Shown here: in pieces, positions 1 to 28,593 of the stretch
How positions within the stretch are numbered: the first letter of the stretch is position 1
How the letters are laid out: each line of letters starts with the position of its first letter
Source of the DNA: a virus
Lineage: Duplodnaviria > Caudoviricetes
IMG/VR virus record: IMGVR_UViG_3300022181_000004
Coordinates: 1-38,849 of that record
DNA length: 38,849 nt
Strand: one strand, 5' to 3'
The notes under the pieces: model-generated
What the model was told of the DNA's origin: nothing
Databases searched by the model: none
Seen by the model: only the letters and a program-made list of their open reading frames with translations
Program-made: the position numbers and the translations under genes

Positions 1-112
1 AAAGCTCCGTTGAAGAAGCCCTGATCGAAATGTATTTAGCCGGCGTTTCTGTCCGCCGGGTGGAGGACATTACGGAAGCCCTGTGGGGGACGAAGGTTTC
101 TCCCTCCACCAT
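1..112 (+). pseudogene. IS256-family transposase internal fragment, truncated
   Basis: Frame reads SSVEEALIEMYLAGVSVRRVEDITEALWGTKVSPST, a motif typical of IS256/Mutator transposases. Similarity stops abruptly at about 112. Confidence 0.8.
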
Positions 113-559
113 GAGTCTGAAGCCGAAGTGGTTCGCTCTGTCTTTGAGATGTACCTCCAAGGCAAAAGCGTGCTCGGCATTATCCGGGAGTTGGAGGCAC
201 AGGGTATCAAGTCCCCCGCCGGAAAAGATAAGTGGTGCAAGCGCAGTATTGACACAATGCTAAGTAATGAAAAGTATTGCGGTGATGTGCTGATGTTCAA
301 AACATACAATACCGGTTATCCCCAGGCCAAACGGCATGTCAATAACGGAGAGAAGGATCAGTTCATCTCGATTGGCAATCACCCGGCGATCGTCTCCAAG
401 GAAACCTTTTCAGCGGTCCAGGCGGAAAAGGAACGTCGCAGCAATGTCGTTAAAGCCGAAAGCGGCAGCAGCAGAAAGCCAACACATTATAGCGCTAAAC
501 GGGACAGCAGGCAGACTGGCGCAAATAATACAGGTGAAAACTCAACCAATGAAATCTAG
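110..559 (+). pseudogene. C-terminal recombinase DNA-binding domain of a large serine recombinase, 5'-truncated
   Basis: EAEVVRSVFEMYLQGKS..I..EL...GI.SP.GK..W....I..MLSNEKYCG...HPAIVSKETF..VQ is the Recombinase-domain signature. No catalytic resolvase domain lies upstream. Confidence 0.8.
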
Positions 560-762
560 CCTAATGATATCTTAAAATTTCTTCAATTTATTCAGAGTAG
601 GCTATTTTATTGTTTAGTTCCTCTCCTTACAGGGACAAGCAATACGCTAGATTAAATTCCCTGCTATACCTATACCTGTGAACGATTTATCAAAAGATTG
701 AACGTTTCCTGTGCCCGGTTTCACTTTTCCCACTTTTCTCCACAAATGCCTAAAAATAACGT

Positions 763-799
763 AAAAAGCTGTCGGGCCTTGCTTCCGGACAGCTTTTTT
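763..799. terminator. Probable bidirectional intrinsic terminator
   Basis: AAAAAGCTGTC(763-773)...GACAGCTTTTT(788-798) inverted repeat with A/T runs on both sides. Confidence 0.6.
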
Positions 800-855
800 G
801 CGAACATATTATGAGGGAAAAGTCCTGCATAGCGGGTCCTTAGAATGAAAATAAG

Positions 856-886
856 GTAGCTTGCCATTGTATCAATGACAAGCTAC
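856..886 (-). terminator. Hairpin immediately downstream of the tmRNA 3' fragment
   Basis: GTAGCTTGCCATTG-tat-CAATGACAAGCTAC, a 14-bp stem with one mismatch, 5 nt past the CCA end on the minus strand. Confidence 0.5.
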
Positions 887-891
887 GATAG

Positions 892-919
892 TGGTGGAGC
901 TGAGGGGAGTCGAACCCCG
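892..919 (-). other. Prophage attachment core: displaced 3' end of tmRNA (ssrA), or possibly tRNA-Ala
   Basis: Minus strand reads CGGGGTTCGACTCCCCTCAGCTCCACCA: a T-arm plus Ala-type acceptor strand ending in CCA. No 5' part of the RNA gene is adjacent, and it sits at the end of the phage gene block. Confidence 0.85.
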
Positions 920-1003
920 ATATAATAAACACCAAGTGTCGCTAGCTGGTATTATGTTAATTAGAATACCACAGTTTAAGCAAAAAAACCACCATTTAAT
1001 TAA

Positions 1004-1025
1004 AAAGTGGGTACAAAGTGGGTAC
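1004..1025. repeat. Tandem 11-bp direct repeat, candidate integrase arm-type sites
   Basis: AAAGTGGGTAC twice (1004-1014, 1015-1025), about 85 bp inside the att core. Confidence 0.55.
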
Positions 1026-1249
1026 TGACAAAGTTGGTTAGTGATCGCAGTCCGCAATACCCATAGCAAAGTTGATTTTAAAAATTTGGCAGGACAAATT
1101 ATAGCCGGTAACTACATTTAGTCTACGATATATCGTCATTGAGTCGGCATTAGCTCGGCACTAACTCAAAACCGGGATATACGGAATTTACAAAAACGAC
1201 AAGAATAACGCGGTAACTTCGACCGAATAGAACAGGGTTGCGGGACGCA

Positions 1250-1459
1250 TCACATAATGGATGCGATGATTCTGCCCATCGTTGCGAGTGCCAAGCCAAT
1301 GCAAACAAGCGTTGCTGCCACCTGTAATATTTTGGCAAAATTGCCTTTGCCGACTGCCGACAGCAGCGAAGCCCCCACCCAGCTGCCGATGCCAATGCCA
1401 ACAATCTGGAGTATCACCGCACCGTCCCCGGAAAAAGCAATTTTTAGTAGTTCGTTCAT
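1250..1459 (-). CDS. SpoIIIAC/SpoIIIAD-like small two-TM membrane protein
   Basis: VILQIVGIGIGSWVGASLLSAVGKGNFAKILQVAATLVCIGLAL follows the AC/AD pattern as recalled (I.I.G(I/V)...L...GK/GQ..A..., two hydrophobic helices). RBS AAGGGGG; abuts the upstream stop. Confidence 0.65.
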   Translation of the reverse strand: MNELLKIAFSGDGAVILQIVGIGIGSWVGASLLSAVGKGNFAKILQVAATLVCIGLALATMGRIIASIM

Positions 1460-1678
1460 TTAATTTACCCCCTTCGAAAAGAAGTCTTGTATGCCCTGGA
1501 GACGCAGATCTATCCACTCTATCCATCCGCACACTATGCCAATAATCATGAATAGCGCAATACCCCAGGAACAAATTTTAATGATGCTGCCTAGTTGCTT
1601 TTGCCCCATTACCTGCATCAAAAGCTGGAACACATAGCCGACTATCACAATTACGATAACCTGCACTATCGTATCCAT
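1460..1678 (-). CDS. SpoIIIAC-like small two-TM membrane protein (72 aa, start MDTIVQ)
   Basis: RBS GAGGTG before ATG 1678. Two hydrophobic helices linked by LMQVMGQKQLG, resembling the SpoIIIAC ILDQMGKKEYA linker as recalled. Confidence 0.55.
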   Translation of the reverse strand: MDTIVQVIVIVIVGYVFQLLMQVMGQKQLGSIIKICSWGIALFMIIGIVCGWIEWIDLRLQGIQDFFSKGVN

Positions 1679-2325
1679 CTGGCAGTCACCTCGCTTATCA
1701 TTTCTGGCAGATGGTAGACTTTGAAAGTCAGGCCGTTGCGGTTCTCGCTGGCTATAAGCCGTTCCACCAACCGACAGCGGCTGGCTTCTTCGCAAACACA
1801 GAGGATGGACGGAAATTTTTTTGCCGTCTGCACCCAGCTTTCGGACTCCCAAATATTTGATTCATACAGATCATTGTACTTCACGATTTTGTCAAAGGTG
1901 TTCTTGCTTCGATCAACCTCGACAAAGGAATATTCTACCTGCCCGGTGAACTTATTAGACAAGCCAAAAAAAGCGTCGGCGCGGACAAACTTATAGTCCT
2001 TTTCATCCTCCCAACGATAAATGGTCTGCCACGACTGCAATCCGTTGAGAGTGTGGATGTAAACCCAGTTTACGGCTATTAGGTGCTCCAATCTGCCGCT
2101 TTTTTGGCTTGTATAATATGCGTAGCTTCGATCAGTTGAGGTATAACATCGCTTTAGGAGTTTCAGATCATGCAGCCGCTTCAATCGTTGGGCTGCTTTT
2201 TTGTCCCCATAAGCAAAGGGGAAATGCAGTGCGGCAACCTGCGCAGAAGTCAGCACCCCCAGCCGCTCGATGTCCCGCAAGATATCCTTATCGCGCTGGC
2301 AGCCTTTTTGTACGTTGTTCATCAT
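1666..2325 (-). CDS. Replication-relaxation family protein
   Basis: N-terminal winged-helix pattern RDKDIL..IERLGVLTSAQVAALHF...AAQRLKRL, then H.IAVN, ADAFF and FVEVDR...KIVKY (PD-(D/E)xK-like core). Overlaps the FtsK gene end. Confidence 0.8.
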   Translation of the reverse strand: MMNNVQKGCQRDKDILRDIERLGVLTSAQVAALHFPFAYGDKKAAQRLKRLHDLKLLKRCYTSTDRSYAYYTSQKSGRLEHLIAVNWVYIHTLNGLQSWQTIYRWEDEKDYKFVRADAFFGLSNKFTGQVEYSFVEVDRSKNTFDKIVKYNDLYESNIWESESWVQTAKKFPSILCVCEEASRCRLVERLIASENRNGLTFKVYHLPEMISEVTARWIR

Positions 2326-3448
2326 ACCACCCCCTTCTAATGGTCATCCGTTTTAGGTTTGCTTCGCATTGCTTCACTGACATATACATGCTTTGCACGA
2401 TCTCTTCTCCTTCCCACTTAAACACCGCTCTGCCGGGGATGTTCTTAGCGATCTTATCGGCGGTTGATGAGCCCAGCACTATACGGCTGTTGGTATCATC
2501 TGCTACGGAAAAACATAGTCTGGCTGGCAGCAAAGCGCGTGTCTTGGCAAAGTCTTTATATAGAGTTGCGTCTGGACGCTGTGTAGACAGAACCAGATGG
2601 ATTCCTGCTGCACGGGATAGCCGCGCCAAACGATTAAGAGCGGTTTGCGCGTCCTTGTCGTCCAGCTCGGCCAACTCGTCAACCACCAGCACTATATAGG
2701 GCATATCTCCATTATACTCTGATATGTTGCGGCATCCAGCATCACGAAGGATAAAGAGCCGCCGGTCTAGTTCGCGGTTGAGGTATGCCAGCAGCCGGGC
2801 AGCTTCGCGTTCATCATCTACGATCAGGCAGTGTTCAGCAAGATAAAAATACTCCAGCCGCTTTAAGTCGATTACCGCCACCCGGATATTGCCCTTCTCG
2901 TTGTTCTTCTCCAGCAACCCTGCGATCATGATATGCAGGAAGGTTGATTTCCCGCCACCAGTCTGCCCCGCAACCATCATGTGCGGGAAGCTGGCCAGAT
3001 CGTATTGCAATGCCTTGCCGCGATGGTCTACGCCGGGGAAGATCGGCAGATGCATCTCATTTTTTTGATAGGCAAAGGGCGCAATTTTAGGTAGCTCTGC
3101 CGTGTGAATATCCATCGTGAGGGTATTTCCCTTATTGGCCAGAAATATCTGCCCCTGCGCCTGTTCCTCAAGGTACTGGAGCCTATTTTCGATCTCCTTC
3201 CGGCTGATTCCGGCCGGCAAGTTGAAGATTAGTCGCGCCCCGTAGTCTGTCTTAATATCCTTGATCAGTAATGGTTTCAGTCCGGCCTTATTCGTCAGTT
3301 CCAACGCGTCAATGGTGTCCATGATGCGCGCCGCGATGGTGTGGTCTTTGATGATCTCCAACTCCCCTATCTTCAGCGGCGGTCGATGCCGCCAGCCAGA
3401 CTTGAGGGCATCAACGATTGGCGTCAGCAGGTCTTCTTCTTGCTTCAT
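2288..3448 (-). CDS. FtsK/SpoIIIE-family ATPase without evident TM segments
   Basis: PHMMVAGQTGGGKS (Walker A), IDLK, YIVLVVDELA (Walker B), RAAGIHLVLSTQRP, PGRA. Confidence 0.92.
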   Translation of the reverse strand: MKQEEDLLTPIVDALKSGWRHRPPLKIGELEIIKDHTIAARIMDTIDALELTNKAGLKPLLIKDIKTDYGARLIFNLPAGISRKEIENRLQYLEEQAQGQIFLANKGNTLTMDIHTAELPKIAPFAYQKNEMHLPIFPGVDHRGKALQYDLASFPHMMVAGQTGGGKSTFLHIMIAGLLEKNNEKGNIRVAVIDLKRLEYFYLAEHCLIVDDEREAARLLAYLNRELDRRLFILRDAGCRNISEYNGDMPYIVLVVDELAELDDKDAQTALNRLARLSRAAGIHLVLSTQRPDATLYKDFAKTRALLPARLCFSVADDTNSRIVLGSSTADKIAKNIPGRAVFKWEGEEIVQSMYMSVKQCEANLKRMTIRRGWYDEQRTKRLPAR

Positions 3449-3572
3449 TCTCTCTCTCCTTCCGCATTTCTCGCCTGATCATGTCCTTGATTATTGCTGT
3501 GGGGCTGCTGAATTGCTGTAGCCAATTATAAATGTCAACCTCGTTGCGTTTAAAAGATAAGTTTATCGCCAT
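3411..3572 (-). CDS. Small ribbon-helix-helix-like protein (53 aa, not in ORF track)
   Basis: Strong RBS GGAGGTGGAGG. MAINLSFKRNEVDIYNWLQQFSSPTAIIKDMIRREMRKERENEARRRPADANR has a beta-strand then two helices pattern; overlaps the FtsK start. Confidence 0.65.
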   Translation of the reverse strand: MAINLSFKRNEVDIYNWLQQFSSPTAIIKDMIRREMRKERENEARRRPADANR

Positions 3573-3607
3573 ACGCAAGCCCTCCACCTCCTCTTTTTGG
3601 GTAGTTC

Positions 3608-3636
3608 AGAATATGCCCAAGAGGATGGAAATATGC
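3608..3636 (-). promoter_or_regulatory. sigmaE-like sporulation promoter
   Basis: Minus strand GCATATTT-ccatcctcttggg-CATATTCT, i.e. ATA-N16-CATAnnnT, matching the sigmaE consensus. The -10 box lies 35 nt upstream of the RHH-like ATG. Confidence 0.65.
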
Positions 3637-3657
3637 GAGAATTTGCGCCACGCAAAT

Positions 3658-3690
3658 AAAAAGCCGCCCCCAGGAGTTATCCCAGGGGCG
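3658..3690 (-). terminator. Intrinsic terminator insulating the FtsK operon from upstream transcription
   Basis: Minus strand CCGCCCCTGGGA-taac-TCCTGGGGGCGG followed by CTTTTTT. Confidence 0.65.
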
Positions 3691-3703
3691 GAGAGAGAGG
3701 AGG

Positions 3704-3816
3704 CTTGCCGGGTGAAAAAGTAAGCCCCGGCAAGAGTGATATTCATTATTATTTGTTCCATATATGGAACAACGGCAGCGCGCCCGCCTCTTATCGCCGT
3801 ATCAGCAAACTGCCGT
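3704..3816. repeat. Cluster of inverted repeats including a perfect 20-bp palindrome
   Basis: CTTGCCGGG/CCCGGCAAG (3704-3734), TTGTTCCATATATGGAACAA (3753-3772), ACGGCAG/CTGCCGT (3772-3816). Confidence 0.75.
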
Positions 3817-3882
3817 ACCGGCCCGCCCTGCGCCGCCCTATTTGTTATTGTGATGGGACCACTAAACCACAAAAAATATGCT

Positions 3883-3911
3883 TTGACAGGTCCAATGCAT
3901 TGTGTTAAAAT
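3883..3911 (+). promoter_or_regulatory. Near-consensus sigmaA promoter for the P63C gene
   Basis: TTGACA-17 nt-TAAAAT with an extended -10 TG. Confidence 0.75.
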
Positions 3912-3936
3912 TATCATATAAACAACGAGGACCACA

Positions 3937-4851
3937 ATGAAAAAGGAGGACAAAATGAACAACGTCCAGCATATGCCAAAGGCTACGCACAGCGGGGACT
4001 GGGTCATTGATGCCGAAGCAAATATCAAAGTGCAATGCTATGTCATGGACAACGGGGAACGTGTTTTATCGCTTCGCGCTTCTTCTCGCGCAATGGGACT
4101 TGTTGGAGCAGGTAGCACGGCATTGGTCCGCAATCTTAATTCCAAATGGATATCCCCTTATTTGTCGGCGGGATTGAGGGATTGGATGTACCACGCTTCA
4201 CGGAACGAGTTGCCAGATTATATAACGGATACCGGACAAAAATTCACCCCACTCGAAGCCTCATTATTTATTGATGTTTGCAAAGCATATGTGGATGCAT
4301 TGCATGACGGTGCAATTTCCGGTAAACAAGAAGATATTGCCCACAGAATGTTTGCAATTATGACGGCGTTCGCAAAAGTTGGGCTTGTTGCGATTATCGA
4401 TGAAGTTACCGGCTATCAAGATGATAGAGACAGAGCCGAGCTTCAGCTTATCTTATCCCAATATATCAGCGAAGAACTTATGCCATGGACCAAGCGTTTC
4501 CCGGACGAGTTTTATAAGCAAATGTTTCGGCTAAAAGGATGGGAATACAAAGGAAAGCCCAAATCGCCATACGCCGGTAGACTTACGGACGAATATATAT
4601 ATAAGTATCTGCCAGATGGTGTTTTGAAGGAACTCCAGTCAAAGAACCCAAGGGATTCCGCGACAAGAAACAGAAAGCACCGTCATCATCAATATCTGAC
4701 AATTAATACGGGAGCAAAGCACCTAGACAACCAACTTCAGCAGACAATGGCGCTTATGAAGGCTTCTGATTCCTGGAAAGAATTTGATAGGCTTTTTAAA
4801 AAGGCCATGGGAAAACCATATCAAACCGCATTAGATTTTGATGGTGATTAA
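3937..4851 (+). CDS. P63C domain protein (moron on the opposite strand)
   Basis: GLVAIIDEVTGYQ..R....LQ.IL..YISEEL.PW.KRFPDEFYKQMFRLKGW...IY..LP.GVL.EL..KNP...HHQYLT, the Mx8 p63 C-terminal-like signature. True start may be ATG 3955 (AGGAGG RBS). Confidence 0.85.
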   Translation: MKKEDKMNNVQHMPKATHSGDWVIDAEANIKVQCYVMDNGERVLSLRASSRAMGLVGAGSTALVRNLNSKWISPYLSAGLRDWMYHASRNELPDYITDTGQKFTPLEASLFIDVCKAYVDALHDGAISGKQEDIAHRMFAIMTAFAKVGLVAIIDEVTGYQDDRDRAELQLILSQYISEELMPWTKRFPDEFYKQMFRLKGWEYKGKPKSPYAGRLTDEYIYKYLPDGVLKELQSKNPRDSATRNRKHRHHQYLTINTGAKHLDNQLQQTMALMKASDSWKEFDRLFKKAMGKPYQTALDFDGD

Positions 4852-28047: not shown

Positions 28048-28416
28048 TCATAGGGCCTCCTTTAGAAGTTCCGAGTTATCGTGGATGTTGCCGATGACCT
28101 CGAGCCAGACTTCGGCGTTATTCAGCCATATCCCGTATAAGCCTTTTCGCTCGATGAAGAATGTTGCATCGCTCCCGTAAACAATATGTCCGGTTATTGT
28201 TTCTCCATCAAACCGCCCCGTAACAATATCCCCCTCGAAAATCTTCTTACCGTTTTCGTCAGTCAGTTCGGTGAATTGGCCGATGGTTTCAGGCTTTACC
28301 GCATATTCATTGTTACTATCAGCGTATATGAGTGGCTTATCAAGCGTGTTGCGTAACGATAAGTCCCCATATACCCATGTGCCATTATGTAACCCTCGAA
28401 ACAAAATCTCACGCAT
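28048..28416 (-). CDS. YopX-family protein
   Basis: MREILFRG...WVYG, ETIGQFT.L.D.NGKKIFEGDIV, EVIGNIHDN.ELL. Confidence 0.92.
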   Translation of the reverse strand: MREILFRGLHNGTWVYGDLSLRNTLDKPLIYADSNNEYAVKPETIGQFTELTDENGKKIFEGDIVTGRFDGETITGHIVYGSDATFFIERKGLYGIWLNNAEVWLEVIGNIHDNSELLKEAL

Positions 28417-28428
28417 GATTTTCCTCCT

Positions 28429-28593
28429 TCATGGACAATAGATATCAACGTGTGCCATGTAGTCATCGTCTACTTGTTTATGGTATTCTTCCTTCCTGGT
28501 ATGTAATGCCCTATGCCAGCGTAGTAGCCGAATAACTCCCTTACGTGTGCGCCTTTTGCGCATCAGCAAAAGGTAGAACTGCATTGGCTTCAT
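28429..28593 (-). CDS. Small hypothetical protein (54 aa, not in ORF track)
   Basis: ATGA overlap with the upstream stop; fills the gap before yopX. Confidence 0.45.
   Translation of the reverse strand: MKPMQFYLLLMRKRRTRKGVIRLLRWHRALHTRKEEYHKQVDDDYMAHVDIYCP

Follow-up and report, generated by a model that had tools for sequence, protein, structure and literature searches.

We analyzed a 38,849-nt contig (IMG/VR record IMGVR_UViG_3300022181_000004; hereafter the window) that comprises most of a siphovirus-like prophage of the HK97 type, encoded on the minus strand, and carries a cassette of five genes encoding a small protein, an FtsK/TcpA-type ATPase, a Replic_Relax family protein (hereafter the nuclease), and two membrane hairpins (Table 1). 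All five open reading frames (ORFs) lie on the minus strand behind purine-rich stretches resembling ribosome-binding sites; the first three junctions are overlaps of 38, 38, and 13 nt, whereas the final pair of ORFs abuts. An earlier examination of the letters and ORFs (the sequence-only reading) had described this layout of overlapping or abutting genes and an upstream terminator, both of which were recovered here. The terminator-like element would insulate the cassette from transcription arriving upstream.

Table 1. Features of the cassette and its surroundings, in window coordinates
Feature	Coordinates	Strand	Support
sigmaE-type promoter GCATATT-14-CATATTCT	3608..3636	-	pattern, trained matrix, conservation in L026
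53-aa small protein, likely RHH-type autoregulator (fold unconfirmed), variable part	3411..3572	-	phrog_4223
386-aa soluble FtsK/TcpA-type ATPase	2288..3448	-	PF01580, AF2, Foldseek
219-aa Replic_Relax protein, winged helix + PD-(D/E)XK-like domain	1666..2325	-	PF13814, AF2
72-aa two-helix membrane hairpin, type B	1460..1678	-	profile comparison
69-aa two-helix membrane hairpin, type A	1250..1459	-	profile comparison
Intrinsic-terminator-like stem-loop + T-tract	3654..3691	-	stem 3691-3664, then T-tract
Second hairpin 3702-3731 + 20-nt palindrome 3753-3772	3702..3772	.	absent in L026
tmRNA (ssrA) 3' end, likely att core / prophage end	892..918	-	Rfam partial match, E = 0.015

The ATPase belongs to the FtsK/SpoIIIE family, as originally labeled: it matches PF01580 above the Pfam cut-off (E = 2.5e-25; 89.7 bits versus 24), retains Walker A, Walker B, and TQRP across 30 aligned relatives, and was modeled by AlphaFold2 (AF2; pLDDT 87.5) with the alpha and RecA-like domains of the motor fold. 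A Foldseek search with this model yielded TcpA as the best match (E = 1.4e-26), followed by the FtsK motor (E = 5.7e-23). The protein shares the motor domains and Walker motifs with SpoIIIE/FtsK and TcpA but, at 386 aa, contains neither a transmembrane (TM) segment nor a gamma domain, the model stopping shortly past the motor domain. It thus differs from the SpoIIIE/FtsK chromosome translocases proper, which possess an N-terminal TM domain and a gamma winged helix. The nuclease, correctly recognized as a replication-relaxation protein, matches PF13814 (Replic_Relax) with E = 3.8e-16 (60.2 bits versus a cut-off of 25.3). Its AF2 model (pLDDT 94.4) contains a winged helix at residues 1-75; across an alignment of 21 sequences, D117 and E136 never vary and D138 is nearly invariant. 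Foldseek returned no match for this model at E<=0.001, and its matches to PD-(D/E)XK nucleases were weak (E>=2.4e-3). The combination of an N-terminal winged helix-turn-helix (wHTH) with PD-(D/E)XK-type acidic residues, weak as the nuclease-fold matches are, is the MOBC architecture. In most relatives, the 38-nt overlap of the two genes (2288-2325) encodes both the C-terminal RLxPR of the ATPase and an R-D of the nuclease, each of which is conserved.

The first gene is the variable part of the cassette. Its 53-aa product matches phrog_4223, to which no function is assigned (E = 6.9e-6), and is 55% identical to its counterpart in the closest relative, with no Pfam match above cut-off and no meaningful PDB sequence match. 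The ribbon-helix-helix (RHH) label it had been given came from a sequence pattern by eye alone and found no backing in these searches. In many relatives, the slot holds an HTH gene or nothing.

The two hairpins, which had been called SpoIIIAC/AD-like, are paralogues of each other (profile comparison, Prob 94%). Like SpoIIIAC/SpoIIIAD (PF06686, TIGR02848/TIGR02849), they are two-helix hairpins of about 65 aa with a G-K/Q turn that align to the profile in ungapped register; unlike them, they score below all curated cut-offs and lie outside a spoIIIAA-AH operon, and some members carry a signal-peptide-like leader. Type A reaches 16 bits against PF06686 (cut-off 24; E = 0.014) and 16.2 against TIGR02849 (cut-off 85.6), and type B, scanned minus its first three residues, has no PF06686 match. 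In hhalign comparisons with five-sequence host alignments, type A aligned with host SpoIIIAC at Prob 51% when five hand-added outliers were included, type B with the N-terminal repeat of host SpoIIIAD, its nearest profile, at Prob 57%, and the type A core with the SpoIIIAD C-repeat at Prob 13%; five of nine pairings exceeded all 40 hydropathy-preserving shuffles. Of all ORFs in the window, hairpin A scored best with the host AC and AD profiles, and the named ESM Atlas neighbors of the hairpins were PF06686 clusters, with scores of 0.83-0.87 (below 0.9, lead level). The weak similarity of type A to SpoIIIAC or the SpoIIIAD C-repeat stands, both proteins fall short of the family cut-offs, and the link as a whole is weak, consistent but distant as judged from sequence profiles. 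With so distant a similarity, the docking of AC/AD mimics at the A-Q complex put forward in the sequence-only reading is speculative. Signal-peptide-like leaders ending in A-x-A were noted by eye in many type-A hairpins (L001, L009, L020, L027, L052, and L081); the window hairpins have none.

The closest relative of the cassette, a prophage-like region of Peptococcaceae bacterium UBA5752 (L026), shares all five genes, in unchanged order, immediately behind its lysin (nuclease 64% and ATPase 75% identical). Five scans yielded 84 loci; with the window included and its own contig left out, the nuclease gene was called in 77 of 84, or 39 after collapse at 80% identity. FtsK adjoins the nuclease in 26 of the 27 non-redundant loci with sufficient upstream DNA, and a small hydrophobic gene, under a loose criterion, in all 31 of 31; all seven held-out genome loci have the ATPase, the nuclease, and at least one ORF matching the hairpin profiles. 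Dozens of loci in clostridial prophages keep the order ATPase-nuclease-hairpin(s), with one or two hairpins, usually downstream and in either order. A nuclease profile built from four sequences retrieved 563 representatives at E<=0.001 (98 at 1e-30). Profile searches were needed because single-sequence searches found almost nothing: tblastn with the nuclease gave no match in phages or in viral contigs, hairpin A found only itself, and FtsK had no match in plasmids at 1e-25. Named hosts include Peptococcaceae, Pelotomaculum, Thermacetogeniaceae, Bacillota bins, and one Archaeoglobus bin. The Archaeoglobus-binned contig (L027), which carries an intact cassette with a sigmaE-like site, is probably misbinned.

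The promoter inferred upstream of the cassette consists of a -35 box GCATATT (3636-3630), a 14-nt spacer, and a -10 box CATATTCT (3615-3608), the expected spacing having been taken from host upstream regions and general background. The pattern ATA-N15-17-CATAnnnT occurs six times in the whole window, and this is the only minus-strand occurrence. With a matrix trained on the upstream regions of host sigmaE genes, some of whose sites are false, it ranks second across both strands (shuffle p ~0.01). These results uphold the sigmaE-consensus promoter of the sequence-only reading. The same boxes are found upstream of host spoIVA and spoIIIAA, and L026 preserves both in TCATATT-14-CATACTTT with an unrelated spacer. 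Of the 31 loci with a full ATPase start, two at contig edges and three with gaps of <60 nt were removed, and the remaining 26 upstream regions were compared with 104 control regions of similar length from the same loci (AT 65% versus 61%). The core ATA-N15-17-CATA was present in 9/26 operon-upstream versus 4/104 control regions (p = 6e-5) and in 0/26 on the reverse strand; the strict form was found in 6/26 versus 1/104. The core is distributed across seven of 17 FtsK clades. Three of the seven held-out loci (L137, L138, and L139) have it at a promoter-like place and another three match in part; the proper upstream region of L140, the seventh, lies outside this scoring.

Two observations bear on which mother-cell regulator might act here. 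A SpoIIID-like box, WWRRACAR, is present in 11/26 versus 9/104 regions; the box was seen first and matched post hoc to the consensus. SpoIIID sites are described as overlapping sigmaE -35 elements (PMC517825), and the -35 element is given as ATA for sigmaE and AC for sigmaK, with a -10 box common to both (PMC3789822). Because sigmaE and sigmaK share the -10 box, "mother-cell" is a safer label for the promoter than "sigmaE." No enrichment was found for sigmaK, sigmaG, or sigmaA patterns (sigmaA, 1/26 versus 10/104). In one relative (L022:3700-3890), an opposite-strand 372-aa gene, transposase/TnpB-like by eye, adjoins the ATPase upstream and appears to displace its promoter. The top sigmaE-like site of the window itself is a different one, at 3737-3766 on the plus strand (TGATATT...CATATATG, score 13.5), facing the P63C gene; if real, it could tie prophage induction to the mother cell. 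Another site (28476-28504, minus strand, score 12.3) lies about 60 nt upstream of the YopX gene (28048-28416).

The proposed link to mother-cell transcription is thus supported by the conservation of the boxes in L026 and by the enrichment of the core, and the host distribution points the same way: sigE was above cut-off in six of eight genomes with cassette matches, and in a blind phylum sample the nuclease was found in 8/400 genomes, all eight with sigE, against a sigE background of 304/401 (76%) and no carriers among 97 sigE-negative genomes (p = 0.11). The prophage host is likely a spore-forming bacterium.

A mother-cell promoter ahead of SpoIIIAC/AD-like hairpins would also be expected of a module that modulates or sabotages sporulation, the hairpins poisoning or altering the SpoIIIA-IIQ channel and the motor or nuclease disturbing chromosome translocation such that the infected mother cell aborts or delays sporulation, to the advantage of the phage. 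The complementarity of the hairpins to the SpoIIIAD repeats (type B to the N-repeat and type A to the C-repeat, each equaled by 0/40 class-shuffled controls) is compatible with this option. However, the hairpins keep company with the motor and nuclease, their divergence is too great for close mimicry, and blocking spores brings little gain to a lysogen or to a plasmid like pLW1071 (see below); we regard sabotage as improbable.

The ATPase-nuclease core is not new. It corresponds to the phage "DNA translocation operon" (Pathria et al. 2012, PMC3357382), a Replic_Relax gene beside an FtsK-like ATPase gene in a phage genome, exemplified by 0305phi8-36 orf200/201, SPO1 gp27.3/27.4, GBSV1, and Gamma/Wbeta, although by tblastn the identity to the phage proteins named there is too low for detection. 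Both systems, found in phages that infect spore-formers, combine a MobC-related Replic_Relax protein with a coupling-type ATPase devoid of TM segments; the window cassette differs in belonging to a clostridial (Peptococcaceae-like) clade in which one or two hairpins follow downstream and the sigmaE core is enriched, whereas the Bacillus operons have one upstream small protein and, in those examined, lacked this core. Deletion of a related operon left plaque growth unaffected, and the same paper proposes biofilm-linked translocation; its text nowhere contains the word "spore" (PMC3357382). Searches of the open-access literature, the scope of this work, turned up no paper in which the ATPase-nuclease pair is joined to a mother-cell promoter or to genes resembling SpoIIIAC/AD. 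Because the core pair is already in print, the claim that the five-gene combination was undescribed fails for the core and holds for the sporulation wiring and the hairpins.

The operon has elsewhere been read as serving replication or segregation (PMC11526630), and PHROG labels of "replication initiation" agree with a maintenance module for the extrachromosomal state. Such a module would start replication, resolve dimers, or aid segregation at whichever division septum forms, with no specificity for the forespore. By eye, ParM-like or RHH neighbors are present in L003 and L011/L030, and a ParM/StbA gene lies near the cassette of plasmid pLW1071. These labels are annotations, not tests; moreover, a sigmaA pattern is not enriched upstream of the operons, and the window phage has replication genes of its own and an att site. 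A general maintenance role therefore appears unlikely to us, at about the level of sabotage. In L003 (1688-2825) and L030 (3516-4509), the ParM-like and RHH-like genes head the cassette, which suggests plasmid-like prophages.

The core pair extends to Bacillus phages and a Geobacillus plasmid. A nuclease query (PK2) matched 28 phage records, 25 with Bacillaceae hosts and three labeled Staphylococcus or Stenotrophomonas, the proteins of the latter scoring like the Bacillus ones. The combination of small gene, FtsK, and nuclease is present in temperate phages and in two Salasmaviridae (phi29 family), DLc1 and Bfsp1; the phi29 family is not known to integrate. It was also found, as a weak match (E ~4e-3), on the conjugative Geobacillus plasmid pLW1071 (L142:3130-5720), the one inspected of eight plasmid matches, which is typed MOBQ relaxase and MPF_T and has the ParM/StbA gene beside the cassette. 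The presence of a separate MOBQ relaxase suggests that the cassette does a job other than conjugation. A sigmaK-like GGACA...GCATA lies there 287 nt ahead of the first annotated gene. Similar matches were seen on seven further Geobacillus/Parageobacillus plasmids. In phage G, no annotated FtsK gene adjoins the nuclease gene, and the FtsK genes of mycobacteriophage Thibault and SP-15 were set aside for want of an annotated Replic_Relax neighbor.

Relaxase, coupling ATPase, and origin of transfer (oriT) had been invoked as a DNA mobilization core, and MOBC-type mobilization like that of CloDF13 MobB/MobC is a rival reading of the cassette: the relaxase and its own coupling ATPase would move the phage or excised prophage to another cell through the type IV secretion system (T4SS) of a helper element. 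The MOBC relaxase TraX of pAD1 shares the wHTH and restriction-endonuclease-like architecture (PMC12857230), the nuclease has the acidic D...ExD and an ATPase neighbor as in these systems, TcpA is the best fold match of the ATPase, and the family has been tied to MobC (Pathria 2012, PMC3357382). In contrast to MOBC systems, however, the cassette is phage-borne, and no oriT, direct-repeat bind site, or T4SS was found: T4SS Pfam models matched 0/58 window ORFs scanned, and neither a VirB4-type ATPase nor mating-pair genes were seen in this prophage, which is cut at the contig end. Under mobilization, the hairpins would doubtfully serve as pilin-like or adaptor parts, with sporulation timing secondary; several type-A hairpins do have signal-peptide-like leaders by eye, but there is no TrbC/VirB2 match among 45 hairpins. 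The occurrence of related cassettes on phi29-like phages, which are linear, and on a plasmid whose typing shows a MOBQ relaxase of its own also argues against mobilization, which we consider rather unlikely.

The inverted-repeat cluster that had suggested an oriT is real as a structure: 3645-3850 folds with z = -3.9, and 3753-3772 is a perfect palindrome. It has no counterpart upstream of the terminator in L026, and for this reason an oriT in 3700-3850 was dropped as unsupported; from the comparison of the two sequences, the hairpin at 3702-3731 and the palindrome are probably not part of the cassette. The related upstream regions covered by the motif search share nothing besides the terminator and promoter.

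The simplest reading of a motor that lacks both an anchor and a reader and is coupled to a winged-helix protein and membrane hairpins is a split translocase. Mother-cell timing, non-integrating carriers, the lack of an oriT and T4SS, and the lack of a plaque phenotype when a related operon was deleted suggest that DNA outside the chromosome is delivered to the forespore, and we tentatively propose, as the best reading, that the cassette may be a spore-entry device for such extrachromosomal DNA. The mother-cell factor sigmaE would read the predicted promoter, leading to production of the FtsK/TcpA-type motor. The two hairpins would anchor the motor at the septal or engulfing membrane, replacing the missing TM anchor, and the winged helix of the nuclease would mark phage DNA, replacing the missing sequence-reading gamma domain. 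The nuclease might nick, cut, or resolve the DNA substrate, and the motor would pump phage DNA out of the mother cell and into the forespore, with or without the host SpoIIIA-IIQ channel. The gain would fall to phage DNA newly injected or excised in a sporulation-committed cell because an integrated prophage enters the spore with the chromosome anyway.

Several results weigh against spore entry. The window phage is itself an integrating prophage, which makes the benefit conditional; the four TM helices are little for passing DNA across two membranes without an identified channel; and structurally the motor is matched best by a coupling protein of conjugation. Of the related operons, 17/26 have no sigmaE core, which was found in 0/7 Bacillus-phage cassettes examined, one of which has a sigmaK-like site. 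An unseeded Gibbs search of the 26 upstream regions did not find the promoter; its top motif was the terminator T-tract (information content 13.1, against ~11 in each of three sets of controls), so that the enrichment hangs on the seeded pattern. The sigE association of hosts is not significant. As to the hairpins, PF06686 matched at E<=0.1 in only 3/31 and 2/14 members of the two sets, the best match (2e-5) being a hand-added outlier; the type A alignment with host AC drops to Prob 5% without the five such outliers; and the small proteins of Bacillus-phage and plasmid cassettes have no significant match to the hairpin profiles.

That phage genomes become entrapped in spores is well documented and has been put down to passive capture or to segregation functions borrowed from the host (PMC12991052, PMC10294663), phage spoIIIE-like genes being listed among possible entrapment aids (PMC10294663). 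A spore-entry role would give the orphan "DNA translocation operon" a function and bear on the roles of SpoIIIAC/AD and the A-Q channel, and the widespread sporulation-wired cassette is a concrete gene set that makes active spore entry testable in Bacillus subtilis phages. In a more specific version, to which we give a low chance, the phages and plasmids of spore-formers would encode a dedicated mother-cell-expressed mini-translocon in which a split SpoIIIAD-like hairpin pair plugs into SpoIIIA-IIQ and injects the genome into the forespore. Its parts, on the same doubtful footing, would be a split SpoIIIE-like motor, the winged-helix nuclease as substrate reader, and the hairpin pair. If true, no earlier spore-entry machine encoded by such an element would precede it, and it would be evidence for the passage of DNA through the A-Q complex.

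Within the prophage, the cassette occupies the moron slot between the lysin and att, given the placement of the att core at 892-918. The tmRNA 3' fragment, the sole known RNA family found (Rfam, 600-4200), stops at 892, and a contig in run X1 departs at 918, its letters past this point reading, in our interpretation, as a continuing tmRNA gene; the att core is thus likely tmRNA-derived. The moron position and an ATPase-nuclease-TM layout common in defense raise the option of a prophage-borne defense with a membrane sensor, shielding the sporulating cell from other phages, and the ATPase domain does match SspH, mad8, and HerA models. These PADLOC matches are limited to the shared FtsK domain, the other five scanned proteins having none, such that a known defense system is unsupported; conserved sequence, order, and promoter together with presence in lytic phages are atypical of defense, and this role is very unlikely.

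The plus-strand P63C gene (3937-4851), with a weak antirepressor-like PHROG match and a strong sigmaA-type promoter at 3883-3911, separates the cassette from the CHAP lysin. The window further encodes replication genes, terminase, portal, capsid, and tail genes; no integrase or repressor was seen in it, the contig end falling within the early region. Beyond the att site, window 1-891, with an IS256-like transposase fragment (1-110, by eye) and a serine-recombinase fragment (83-559, PF07508), is a decayed island at ssrA.

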